Numbered from the stretch's first letter, positions 26,904-29,627 are shown. The stretch is DNA of 32,000 nt from a virus (IMGVR_UViG_3300045988_123082:1-32000); one strand, 5' to 3'. The notes: generated by a model from the letters alone, not told the origin. Numbers and translations are program-made.

Positions 26904-27029
26904 ATGAAAACAAAAATATCCATAAATATCAAATTAGAATTTGAAATTGATATAGCGCTTATAAAGTCACAAATAAAAAGGCTTGTTATTAGTGCTATAT
27001 CACAAATAACAAACCTAATTAATTAACCA
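26904..27029 (+). CDS. possible 41-aa leader peptide ORF
   Basis: ATG 26904 lies 4 nt after GGTGGT. Translation is MKTKISINIKLEFEIDIALIKSQIKRLVISAISQITNLIN. Its 3' third is overlapped by the antisense small RNA. The frame is not conserved in repeat copy 2. Confidence 0.25.
26975..27028 (-). ncRNA. candidate ~54-nt small RNA, copy 1 (cis-antisense to the cassette leader)
   Basis: Predicted RNA: GGUUAAUUAAUUA, then stem GGUUUGUUAUUUGUG / loop AUAUAG / CACUAAUAACAAGCC, then U5. It starts ~7 nt after a consensus -10. Confidence 0.6.
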
Positions 27030-27034
27030 TTTAT

Positions 27035-27063
27035 ATTATAAACCGTGTCTTTCACTTTTTCAA
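27035..27063 (-). promoter_or_regulatory. promoter of small RNA copy 1
   Basis: Minus-strand TTGAAA (27063-27058), 17 nt, TATAAT (27040-27035). Confidence 0.65.
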
Positions 27064-27272
27064 GTTTAGGAGGTGTAAACATTGTAAGAAAAAAAAGTGG
27101 TTCTTTCAATCAAATAGAATATATAAAAGAATTTAATAAAGCCAATTATAGAAAATACGAAATTAGAGTAAGAAAAGAAAATATAGACCTTATAAAATGG
27201 CTTGATAAACAACCAAGTAAAACCGCTTATATAATAGATTTGATTGAAAAAGATATGAACAAAAACAAATAA
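27045..27272 (+). CDS. ribbon-helix-helix (Arc/CopG-like) DNA-binding protein
   Basis: ..ANYRKYEIRVRKENIDLIKWLDKQPSKTAYIIDLIEKDM.. fits the beta-strand, helix, helix pattern of RHH repressors. TAGGAGG lies at 27067-27073. The true start is uncertain (GTG 27045 has no RBS; only ATT 27081 follows the RBS in frame). Confidence 0.6.
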   Translation: MSFTFSSLGGVNIVRKKSGSFNQIEYIKEFNKANYRKYEIRVRKENIDLIKWLDKQPSKTAYIIDLIEKDMNKNK

Positions 27273-27361
27273 AAAAAACGTGAACCCCTTTCAAGTTTGG
27301 CCGCTTCCAGGAGTTCACAACAACGGCAAATATACACAAAATTCAGGAGGTTAAACCCGTC

Positions 27362-27880
27362 TTGTATATATTGCTTTTCTATTCTACCATAGACGGGTTA
27401 AAAAAGAAAATGTTATCTATTTGTGAAACTTCAACTAAACACGTGGCTTATATGGCTACACAATACGACGATTTTGCGCATTCTACAGACGGTGCAATCA
27501 TGGAAGCGCTTGGCGATGAAATTCTTGAAAATATGTATGATGATGAACTTCTTCCATTATGGTTTGAATTTAGAAGTGAACGATATAATGAATATTATTA
27601 TGAATTAGATAATGATAATCTTGATTCATGTTTATCAAGCTATGAGCCTAATGAAATTGTAAGAATGACATTGGCTGGTGACTTCCATTATTGTGACGAT
27701 TATTTCATTATTAATGATTATGAGAATTTAGAAAGTTTTTCGGATTATAGACTATTAGAAGAAGCTAGAAAAGATGATGAGTTCAAAACTTGGCTTACTG
27801 ATGAGAAAAGTGACTGGGATATGGACTGGTTAGAAGAAACTAGAAAACAATATTTAGCTTACTTAAAAGAAGGGTACTAA
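27362..27880 (+). CDS. highly acidic, aromatic-rich hypothetical protein (172 aa)
   Basis: TTG 27362 lies 11 nt after AGGAGG (27345-27350). Long D/E/Y/W-rich sequence (..NMYDDELLPLWFEF..DNDNLDSCLSSYEPNE..DEKSDWDMDWLEE..). Confidence 0.6.
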   Translation: MYILLFYSTIDGLKKKMLSICETSTKHVAYMATQYDDFAHSTDGAIMEALGDEILENMYDDELLPLWFEFRSERYNEYYYELDNDNLDSCLSSYEPNEIVRMTLAGDFHYCDDYFIINDYENLESFSDYRLLEEARKDDEFKTWLTDEKSDWDMDWLEETRKQYLAYLKEGY

Positions 27881-27962
27881 CATGTTAACCCGCAAAGATC
27901 TTGACAAGATGAGCGCCGTCCAGGTGCTCATACTTGCATTTTTAAAATTGTATTTAGCAGCG

Positions 27963-27991
27963 TGCACATCTACATTGATTATGGGTATAAT
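27963..27991 (+). promoter_or_regulatory. candidate internal promoter of the three-gene sub-operon
   Basis: TGCACA (27963-27968), 17 nt, TATAAT (27986-27991), 58 nt upstream of ATG 28049. Confidence 0.4.
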
Positions 27992-28048
27992 ATTGGGCCT
28001 TTTAAATATCATACTACCATTTATTTATTAATTGCAGGAGGTAAAACC

Positions 28049-28321
28049 ATGGAAATTTTAGAAGTTAAACTCTTGCATAAATATGCAAGAATAAGATCAT
28101 ATATGAATGATCTTATTTCTGGTAATTTTGTCATATATGACTTTTTATATGAATGTTTAGTGGATCATATTAATTCATTTATTTATGATCTTGCTTATAT
28201 AGAAAGTGAAAAAGTTATACGCGTTTATTATGATCAACTTTTAGTTGATTCTAAACAAGTAAGCAAAGAACTTTATACACTTGTTATAACAATTTTTGAA
28301 GATAATGAATGGAGGTTTTAA
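28049..28321 (+). CDS. hypothetical protein (90 aa)
   Basis: ATG 28049 lies 7 nt after AGGAGG. The longer GTG 27962 start in the ORF track lacks an RBS and overlaps the promoter. Confidence 0.6.
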   Translation: MEILEVKLLHKYARIRSYMNDLISGNFVIYDFLYECLVDHINSFIYDLAYIESEKVIRVYYDQLLVDSKQVSKELYTLVITIFEDNEWRF

Positions 28322-28323
28322 AA

Positions 28324-28554
28324 ATGAATAATAAAGAATATATTGAGTTTACAGAAAAAAAACTAGATCGACTAAATGGATCTAGCTGCAAACCTTACAC
28401 AATTACAAAACATTTAAACGGTTTATATGATTTTAACTATGGTTTAGATACCATTGCTTGGATGCTTGAACCGCGTGAACTTTGGCTACTTGCAAATACT
28501 TTATATACTTTGGATATTTTAGGAGGTATTAAAAATGACAATGTGGAAGCGTGA
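28324..28554 (+). CDS. hypothetical protein (76 aa)
   Basis: ATG 28324 after GGAGG, 2 nt after the upstream stop. Confidence 0.6.
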   Translation: MNNKEYIEFTEKKLDRLNGSSCKPYTITKHLNGLYDFNYGLDTIAWMLEPRELWLLANTLYTLDILGGIKNDNVEA

Positions 28555-29122
28555 ACGAAACCATTTTAATTATTATGTTACAAATGAGCGGAAAAAACCG
28601 CACATTTATGTTGAAGCGTTAGGAACTCCCAGCGCTTCAACTGAAAAAGTTTTAAAAGATCATGGTTTTAAATTTGATCATAATAAATGCATGTATGCAG
28701 CAGCTCAAACAAATGACTTGAGGTTGTTCGTGGCGCATGATCTTGACAAGCTTTTCAGCTATGATATTCAAATATATTTCAATACTGAAGCTAAAAAAGA
28801 ACTTTTCGCGCCTGATATCCAAGAAATAAAAGATATCTGTTATTATTTCAAAATTTATAAATGCTATGTTGATATTTTAAATAAGGATCTTTTTAAGATT
28901 TGTAAACCAGGCTCAAAATCTTTGCTTTTTACTTATAACACAAATTCAAAAACTATAGATGTATTTAATAGAAACAAATTACAAGAAAGCTATATATATA
29001 ATGATGGTAAAATCGAAAAAATGAGCATTGAAAAAGCTGCACCAAAAAAGAAAAAGAAAGCAGCACTTACAGAACAACAAAAAATCAATAATATGATTGA
29101 TGATTTTGAATTTCCATTTTAA
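28535..29122 (+). CDS. hypothetical protein (195 aa) with a Lys-rich linker and an acidic-aromatic C-terminal tip DDFEFPF
   Basis: ATG 28535 after TAGGAGG, overlapping the upstream gene by 20 nt. The C-terminus is ..KAAPKKKKKAALTEQQKINNMIDDFEFPF. Confidence 0.65.
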   Translation: MTMWKRERNHFNYYVTNERKKPHIYVEALGTPSASTEKVLKDHGFKFDHNKCMYAAAQTNDLRLFVAHDLDKLFSYDIQIYFNTEAKKELFAPDIQEIKDICYYFKIYKCYVDILNKDLFKICKPGSKSLLFTYNTNSKTIDVFNRNKLQESYIYNDGKIEKMSIEKAAPKKKKKAALTEQQKINNMIDDFEFPF

Positions 29123-29149
29123 AAGGACTTGCGAAAAGTCCTTTTTTTA
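29122..29149 (+). terminator. intrinsic terminator of the plus-strand cassette
   Basis: AAAGGACTT-GCGAA-AAGTCCTTT followed by a T-run. It begins at the stop codon. Confidence 0.75.
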
Positions 29150-29162
29150 TGTCTTCTTTTAG

Positions 29163-29197
29163 TTGGATCAGCTGCAATTCAATTGGATCAGCTGCAA
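29163..29197. repeat. two direct copies of TTGGATCAGCTGCAA with 20-bp spacing
   Basis: Copies at 29163-29177 and 29183-29197. Each contains the palindrome CAGCTG. Confidence 0.8.
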
Positions 29198-29228
29198 AAT
29201 GTTTTTCTTGTTTCTTTTGTTTGAATAT

Positions 29229-29283
29229 AAAAAAGGCTTGTTACTAGTGCTATATCACAAATAACAAACCTAATTAATTAACC
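29229..29283 (-). ncRNA. candidate ~55-nt small RNA, copy 2 (also the 3' end/terminator of the paralog operon)
   Basis: Same RNA as copy 1 with one stem change (A to G) that converts a U-A pair into U-G. It ends in U6. Confidence 0.55.
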
Positions 29284-29289
29284 ATCTAT

Positions 29290-29318
29290 ATTATAAACCG
29301 TGTTTTTCACTTTTTCAA
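29290..29318 (-). promoter_or_regulatory. promoter of small RNA copy 2
   Basis: Minus-strand TTGAAA (29318-29313), 17 nt, TATAAT (29295-29290). Confidence 0.6.
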
Positions 29319-29627
29319 TTTAAGAAGTTTCTCATTTATCATATTATATTCTATATAGTTTAGAATACTAAACACTTTCATTAAGTTTGATCCTGAATAA
29401 AGTTTAAAATACTTTGAATCCTTTTTGTGACCATTTCCAATATCTCTATTCAATAACTTTTCAACCAAACTATTAAACGTTTCTTTATTGGCTCTGTAAT
29501 ACCATAATTTTTTAGACCCATCTGTTTCTAAAGACATAACTTCTTTATCATCTGAACATACAACAACTATTGTTGTATCTTTATAACTTATATGAATATC
29601 AATATATAAAAACTTGTTTTCAAACAT
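29307..29627 (-). CDS. paralog 4 of a small-protein family (106 aa)
   Basis: GGAGGTG RBS. It shares the family pattern: an N-terminal beta hairpin (LYIDIHISYKDTTIVVVCSD), a central F..L..KLL segment, and a C-terminal KYFKLYS...F.IL. Confidence 0.6.
   Translation of the reverse strand: MFENKFLYIDIHISYKDTTIVVVCSDDKEVMSLETDGSKKLWYYRANKETFNSLVEKLLNRDIGNGHKKDSKYFKLYSGSNLMKVFSILNYIEYNMINEKLLKLKK

Follow-up and report, generated by a model that had tools for sequence, protein, structure and literature searches.

In the c4-icd-ant system of phages P1 and P7, and in the CopA-tap-repA system of plasmid R1, an antisense RNA acts on a small upstream open reading frame (ORF) whose translation governs the downstream gene. 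Small sequence differences in the RNA set specificity groups apart, and c4 and its target derive from one transcript, out of which c4 is processed. Here we describe a 98-nt unit in a 32,000-nt stretch of viral DNA (IMGVR_UViG_3300045988_123082:1-32000; hereafter, at its full length, the window). The unit looks like a self-contained small-RNA gene, with a sigma-70-type promoter and an antisense product of approximately 55 nt, and it occurs twice in the same orientation, once in the leader of a six-gene accessory operon and once beyond the end of that operon. The hairpin alleles of the unit recall the specificity groups of c4 and CopA; the RNA differs from both in that it is predicted to come from a convergent promoter, no translational coupling is evident across the 54-nt gap between the stop codon of the small leader ORF and the next start, and there is no homology.

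A second point of comparison is the immunity I region of phage P22, the 'ant moron', in which the sar antisense RNA together with the Arc and Mnt repressors controls ant (PMC2629481 and references therein). Our locus resembles immI in having an accessory operon with a strong promoter and, as predicted from the sequence, a short antisense RNA that would be read from a convergent internal promoter on the opposite strand and end at an intrinsic terminator. Small regulatory proteins are a further likeness: in relatives of the window a 69-aa ORF, by eye a helix-turn-helix protein, replaces the RNA control region. The differences are that the RNA here overlaps the end of the leader ORF and not a ribosome-binding site, that it has no Rfam match in sequence or structure, that an Arc-like first gene is not demonstrated, and that no antirepressor is recognised. 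To our knowledge, P22 has nothing equivalent to the orphan second copy of the RNA gene.

The type I toxin-antitoxin pairs bsrG/SR4 and yonT/SR6 share with this locus a convergent small RNA, predicted in our case, over the 3′-end of a small ORF, and a structured mRNA. Type I toxins are described as small hydrophobic proteins (PMC6563280); SR4 works by decay and by a structural change at the ribosome-binding site (PMC3834814), and yonT belongs to a polycistronic mRNA (PMC5848175). In contrast, the peptide encoded here is non-hydrophobic and its ORF heads a six-gene operon. Judged by its layout, the unit would work most like sar control in P22 and the 3′-overlapping antitoxin RNAs of Bacillus prophages, with full membership in neither group, and is best filed with the antisense countertranscripts.

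The reading that we favour, with a probability of about 0.6, is that the unit is a small antisense-RNA gene whose home is the operon leader (site 1), that the copy at site 2 is an old copy of the transcription unit, and that the two sites assort independently. A repeat search of the window places copy 1 at 26975-27072 (site 1) and copy 2 at 29230-29327 (site 2), the unit being read on the minus strand in both. Together they form one direct repeat with a spacing of 2255 nt, identical at 92 of 98 positions (94%), with mismatches at unit positions 15, 57, 75, 90, 93 and 96. The ~96-bp modules described in the first-pass annotation (26973-27068 and 29227-29322), which were said to differ by few substitutions, are real and lie 2-5 nt off these limits, the substitutions numbering six over the 98 positions; the 1-nt offset between the copies arises because the A-run of copy 2 has one extra A. 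A 28-nt core of the unit occurs exactly twice in the window with up to three mismatches allowed and not at all in shuffled sequence, and a chance origin of the repeat is excluded. The ends of the repeat match the promoter on one side and the terminator on the other.

On the minus strand, both copies read as a promoter-like site (TTGAAA-17-TATAAT), an AU-rich 5′ tail, a hairpin and a U-run, the build of a small RNA gene that the first-pass annotation had also recognised. The promoter of copy 1 spans 27063-27035 (-35 at 27063-27058, -10 at 27040-27035) and that of copy 2 spans 29318-29290 (-35 at 29318-29313, -10 at 29295-29290). Each agrees with the consensus at 11 of 12 positions, and in 25900-32000 they rank second and third, after a plus-strand site at 26777-26804 (12/12). 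Judging from the position of the -10 hexamer, the RNA of copy 1 would start near 27028, with its hairpin at 27015-26980 and U-run at 26979-26975 (RNA body 26975-27028), and that of copy 2 near 29283, with its hairpin at 29270-29235 followed by the U-run. The predicted RNA of ~55 nt begins with a single-stranded, AU-rich tail of 13-14 nt, (G)GUUAAUUAAUUAG, and continues into a stem of 15 bp with one U·U mismatch, followed by five to six U. The hairpin folds in the same way in both copies (-19.6 and -17.5 kcal/mol, z -4.9 and -4.1); the plus-strand fold of the unit is weaker (-12.3 and -8.8 kcal/mol), and the G·U pairs of the minus-strand RNA are C·A mismatches in the plus-strand RNA. The two predicted RNAs differ at a single base. 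This is the T-to-C change (plus strand) at unit position 15, an A-to-G change in the minus-strand RNA which turns a U-A pair into U-G; it is the sole difference in the stem, as had been noted before, and the change at unit position 57 falls between the -10 and the start. A search of the whole window against Rfam at the gathering threshold returned only a tRNA and nothing on the unit, and at E values up to 10 the region 26700-29450 gave chance-level matches only, none of them on the unit.

Copy 1 lies within the leader of the operon. The plus-strand site at 26777-26804 (TTGACA-16-TATAAT) is conserved in both of the leader families described below, I and II, and there is no other good plus-strand promoter ahead of the first gene; the six genes are therefore most likely read from it. 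It is followed by a structured 5′ leader of approximately 270 nt (26809-27083, plus strand; minimum free energy -74.6 kcal/mol, z -7.96), for which Rfam has no family match. At its 5′ end the leader folds into a stem-loop (26809-26834). A long-range helix of 10 bp joins 26836-26845 to 27043-27052, its second arm sitting in the spacer of the small-RNA promoter, and GGUUAA (26869-26874) pairs with UUAACC (27023-27028) in an inner helix. In a consensus fold of nine related leaders the helices are retained, and 11 pairs show compensatory changes. The leader contains a 40-codon ORF (26904-27026, plus strand; MKTKISINIKLEFEIDIALIKSQIKRLVISAISQITNLIN), the last 17 codons and stop of which lie inside copy 1, so that the predicted RNA of copy 1 is by position fully complementary to them over ~55 nt. 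The start codon of this ORF is buried in a hairpin that shows a compensatory UA-to-GC change. The ORF keeps its length of 40 codons whichever of the hairpin alleles A, C and D is present, and Family II leaders carry an ORF of 35-37 codons at the equivalent place. The peptides are amphipathic and lysine-rich, with a maximum Kyte-Doolittle value over 15 residues of 1.07 in the window and 0.1-1.4 among the Family I alleles. The promoter of the unit is convergent to the operon promoter at a distance of 250 bp, and the RNA body does not reach the Shine-Dalgarno sequence of the first gene (27068-27073), which lies ~40 nt away. A second minus-strand promoter-like site (TTGAAA-17-TACAAT, 10/12) is found outside the repeat at 27109-27081, over the start of the first cassette gene; if it were active, a longer antisense RNA would begin in or beside this Shine-Dalgarno sequence.

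From this layout a mechanism can be proposed. The 5′ tail of the small RNA would pair with CUAAUUAAUUAACC at the stop codon of the leader ORF, displacing the leader's own GGUUAA:UUAACC helix, and pairing would then extend through the hairpin. The resulting long duplex would lower expression of the operon, through RNase III-type cleavage, through blocked translation of the leader ORF, or both, and interference from head-on transcription may contribute. Copy 2 would be an old recombinational copy of the transcription unit only, fused to the 3′-end of the convergent operon. There it would act as the first terminator of that operon and as a second source of nearly identical RNA, both free and as a 3′ untranslated region (UTR), adding to the dosage; in the window, this RNA could also act on the leader at copy 1.

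To see how the two sites vary, exact and degenerate patterns of the unit were scanned against IMG/VR and metagenomes (at least one labelled human gut), and a search with a 195-aa cassette protein, independent of the unit, added 51 further loci. The resulting set holds 69 contigs including the window; it was not de-replicated, and some contigs represent the same phage from two databases. The unit is seen at site 1 only in 10 contigs, at site 2, either alone or next to a site 1 not of the window type, in 20, and at both sites in five, and in the remaining 34 of the 69 none was seen in the stretches fetched. It was found nowhere but at the two sites in the IMG/VR and metagenome scans, and two scans of 185,579 GTDB species-representative genomes gave no match. 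Cultured relatives were sought with a megablast of 26600-29700 against 50,697 phage records and with a tblastn of the 195-aa protein against cultured phage records, and neither found anything.

Three kinds of sequence occupy site 1. Family I is the window-type leader with hairpin allele A, C or D. Family II is unrelated in sequence and has the same layout: it shares the operon promoter and the 5′ stem-loop, and has an ORF of 35-37 codons, an A-run followed by a hairpin, and an analogous long-range helix of its own (z -4.6). Its RNA body and spacer differ from those of Family I, and its minus-strand promoter-like site (TTGACT-17-TATAAT) and the Shine-Dalgarno sequence of the first gene are 5 nt apart. 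The protein type, seen in many relatives, has no RNA unit and carries instead, on the minus strand, the divergently transcribed 69-aa ORF with its own promoter; in contig L001, for example, positions 5435-6102 replace window positions 26760-27410. By eye the 69-aa ORF reads as an XRE-type helix-turn-helix regulator, with no match in Pfam or NCBIfam. The protein-type region also holds a promoter in divergent orientation and two small ORFs that are basic or membrane-like. The cassette operon thus has at least three interchangeable upstream regions. Site 2 is of two types, having either a unit of allele A or B with a gene for a 106-aa paralog, or a metallopeptidase-like gene (HExxH motif; below-threshold match to DUF6782) directly after the operon terminator.

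A cross-tabulation of the two sites, which leaves out 21 contigs with one or both sites uncovered, yields many combinations. Where site 1 is of Family I, allele A is found with allele A at site 2 in two contigs (the window and OROZ01000484) and with the peptidase in five, allele C with B′ in two and with the peptidase in two, and allele D with A in one. Protein-type site 1 is combined with A in two contigs, with B in six and with the peptidase in 16, and Family II with A in three, with B in one and with the peptidase in eight. On this comparison we take the two sites to be independently assorting positions in a mosaic phage population and not the ends of a mobile cassette.

Copy 2 overlaps the end of the convergent minus-strand operon, as the first-pass annotation stated. 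The last gene of that operon (29307-29627, minus strand, 106 aa) has its stop codon inside copy 2, beside the -35 hexamer, and the unit is positioned to terminate the operon and to form its 3′ UTR; minus-strand transcripts that ended at the copy 2 hairpin would therefore carry the antisense sequence there. Residues 1-90 of the 106-aa protein align with the full length of the paralog encoded at 29646-29966 (34% identity); the last 16 residues, 91-106, have no counterpart in the paralog and extend the reading frame into copy 2. The spacer between the operon terminator and copy 2 (29158-29229) resembles, by eye, the 3′-end of the peptidase gene in relatives that lack copy 2. It contains a 20-nt tandem duplication at 29158-29197 (TTyArTTGGATCAGCTGCAA, which includes CAGCTG), present as one copy in most relatives.

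It had been proposed that copy 2 supplies additional antisense RNA in trans. In the window this is feasible, because both copies are of allele A and differ at one G·U-compatible base: in RNAduplex the first 30 nt of the copy 2 RNA pair with the copy 1 leader at -42 kcal/mol, equal to the value at its own locus, and the only strong targets of this RNA in the window are the two unit loci. The proposal does not hold generally. Of the 17 site-2 carriers with a known site 1, 12 lack a matching (Family I) leader, and the 13-nt target occurs only inside units across 0.8 Mb of relatives, so that supply in trans would not be the conserved reason for site 2. RNAduplex searches of the window and of contigs L001 and L074 gave no other target above the shuffled background. 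Neither a jumping cassette nor a bistable two-operon switch is supported.

Within each site the promoter half of the unit and the 5′ tail are constant, and it is the hairpin half that varies (A, B, B′, B″, C and D). All nine variants of the hairpin, four of them A-type and the others B, B′, B″, C and D, keep a stem of 13-15 bp, the U-run and the promoter, and differ in stem sequence. A joint structural alignment of the A-type with the B/C/D-type hairpins could not be used for pair counts, the registers being one off. Hairpins of the A type and of the B/D type are found at both sites. When allele B is placed in the site-1 frame the tail of the ORF is, by eye, still intact, which suggests a recent short-patch import from a site-1 leader. 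Further, in the two C/B′ contigs the B′ loop (AGTGA) is that of C, the loop of B being ACTGA elsewhere. Such matching of alleles within a genome fits either gene conversion or co-adaptation, the numbers being too small to choose between them.

According to the first-pass annotation, the cassette had been inserted by recombination between the repeats, or could be excised through them. Two 98-nt direct repeats that are 94% identical could in principle recombine, and the sharing of A- and B-type hairpins between sites with site-specific promoter halves, together with the common loop of B′ and C, does suggest short-patch exchange. As the substrate for insertion or excision of the 2.2-kb cassette, however, the repeats fare badly, and we regard this as very improbable. 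Among 68 unit occurrences in the 69 contigs there is not one hybrid, deletion or circle junction; every unit has both flanks from one and the same site, the copies of each site carry their own fixed diagnostic single-nucleotide polymorphisms (SNPs), those of site 2 being common to all site-2 copies, and scans of the whole collection with a hybrid-tolerant pattern recovered no SNP combinations other than the two parental ones. All relatives with enough flank fetched have the cassette genes, including those with one unit or none; no relative with a single repeat and no cassette was found among the 69 contigs wherever the flank sufficed, and a search for such relatives with the 106-aa paralog returned only five contigs, all already in the set. 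The locus has the repeats at both ends that a mobile cassette would have, but neither empty sites nor an internal recombinase, none being found in domain searches of the cassette against Pfam and NCBIfam. The repeats do enclose all the plus-strand genes and their terminator, as claimed earlier; the operon promoter and ~165 nt of leader lie to the left of copy 1, and the repeats therefore do not enclose a complete transcription unit. At the population level, the sequences largely refute this reading. The locus could instead be a type I toxin-antitoxin system, in which the 40-codon ORF is the toxin, the small RNA its antitoxin, and copy 2, like the orphan copies at site 2 elsewhere, a spare or anti-addiction antitoxin. 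An ORF of fewer than 60 aa that is open in all alleles, a start codon sequestered in a hairpin with a compensatory change, a strongly structured mRNA with 5′-3′ long-range pairing and a predicted convergent antisense RNA over the 3′-end of the ORF, as in bsrG/SR4 and yonT/SR6 (PMC3834814, PMC5848175), would all suit such a system. The lysine-rich, amphipathic peptides do not, and neither does the setting of the ORF in the leader of a six-gene operon, where it lacks its own plus-strand terminator; Rfam gives no antitoxin match, and between the window and contig L053 all seven codon differences in the allele A leader ORF are, by eye, non-synonymous. We consider it unlikely.

A simpler view, to which we likewise give little credence, is that the hairpin and U-run are an intrinsic terminator, that the promoter hexamers are fortuitous or relict, and that copy 2 merely ends the minus-strand operon. 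The hairpin and U-run do exist, a stop codon immediately precedes copy 2, and units are kept at site 2 in phages without any target and in one contig (147254, of the D/A type) whose site-2 promoter is disrupted. Yet hexamers agreeing at 11 of 12 positions with a 17-nt spacing are present in every allele, and a promoter-like site is found also in Family II, where the spacer is unrelated; copy 1, moreover, has no gene upstream on the minus strand in need of a terminator. Nor is the unit at site 2 needed merely for termination, because a second terminator lies ~85 nt downstream (29121-29145), and relatives without the unit rely on this alone. It is also conceivable, though improbable, that at site 2 a phage carries the RNA gene, without the matching leader, as a trans-acting weapon or immunity determinant with which it silences the accessory operon of related co- or superinfecting phages. 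The independence of site 2 from the type of site 1, the retention of the transcription unit alone and the intact ORF tail of allele B are compatible with this, and the alleles (A, B, C and D) of the hairpin and the leader ORF, exchanged under a constant promoter, would then reflect an arms race over RNA-RNA specificity.

Several points weigh against our preferred reading, that of an antisense-RNA gene with its home at site 1 and an old copy at site 2. Transcription of the ~55-nt RNA is predicted for both copies, and the mechanism of repression is proposed by analogy. A simple terminator scan did not call the hairpins of the unit, because of the internal U·U mismatch. The 12 site-2 carriers without a matching leader, for whose RNA no other target was found, count here also, and copy 2 may therefore be a passenger. 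So does contig 147254, where 10 bp are duplicated within the spacer of the promoter at site 2, which should inactivate that promoter. Finally, the site-2 units are as invariant as the spacer to their left, which is presumably non-functional; since the low diversity extends into the spacer, it is not readable as selection and may reflect recent shared ancestry.

The operon itself consists of six plus-strand genes (27081-27272, 27362/27410-27880, 27882-28031, 28049-28321, 28324-28554 and 28535-29122) and ends at a bidirectional terminator (29121-29145), a hairpin preceded by an A-run and followed by a T-run, which is present in relatives with and without a unit at site 2. Searches of the cassette proteins against Pfam, NCBIfam, PADLOC and PDB sequences gave no match, and those against PHROGs only families of unknown function. 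In the first gene ATT stands 7 nt after a strong AGGAGG, and no ATG, GTG or TTG lies nearby in frame; contig L005 has ATA at this place, and some homologues have ATG two codons upstream. Gene callers start it at a GTG at 27045 that has no ribosome-binding site, and it is likely that the gene uses a non-canonical start. Homologues of its product are all close and unannotated, and the AlphaFold model is all-helical (pLDDT 64); a by-eye guess that it is an Arc-like ribbon-helix-helix protein was not confirmed by this model. The second gene (27412-27882; 156-172 aa, very acidic, phrog_4534) is replaced by unrelated sequence in several relatives (L003, L004 and L005), and the intergenic block 27219-27415 is retained there; the cassette itself is therefore mosaic. 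The intergenic region 27268-27412 shows no significant structure (z -1.7).

The window coincides with a 46.9-kb metagenome scaffold, COST17-1_SAMEA4545398. Elsewhere in the window, the large terminase is 46-48% identical to its best phage matches, phage nd12 and the Butyrivibrio phages Arawn and Idris. A tRNA-Asp (GTC) at 728-803 (minus strand) adjoins an amidase-type endolysin gene at 1007-2083 (minus strand) at the end of the late genes. The latter had been considered as an integrase and was rejected as such; no integrase was seen in the window, and prophage status is therefore not claimed. Upstream of the HNH and terminase genes lies a non-coding stretch of ~770 nt (26003-26770) that is richer in G+C than the cassette and paralog region to its right (~27-31% G+C). 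It includes a minus-strand terminator (26624-26608), and at its left edge an inverted repeat of 32 nt (25937-25968 with 26012-26043) lies across the HNH gene start; the packaging site and a late promoter may be located in this stretch. The product of the gene at 30396-31040 (minus strand) matches the beginning of a phage major tail protein over its N-terminal 83 residues (phrog_88, E 1e-14), and over its C-terminal 96 residues it shares 60% identity with the adjacent paralog at 29956-30375; this looks like a gene fusion or a recombination scar in the tandem paralog array 29307-31040.

The finding opens no long-standing question. If the RNA is made, a widespread group of uncultured phages of the human gut would have an antisense-RNA family that is undescribed and missing from Rfam, and the RNA would control an operon of six unannotated proteins. 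The relatives form a natural comparison set in which one operon stands under either of two unrelated RNA-based leaders or a putative small helix-turn-helix regulator, the latter called by eye. With a separate copy of the RNA gene also standing at the operon's far end, the locus offers a system in which the exchange of regulatory modules and the evolution of antisense specificity may be followed.

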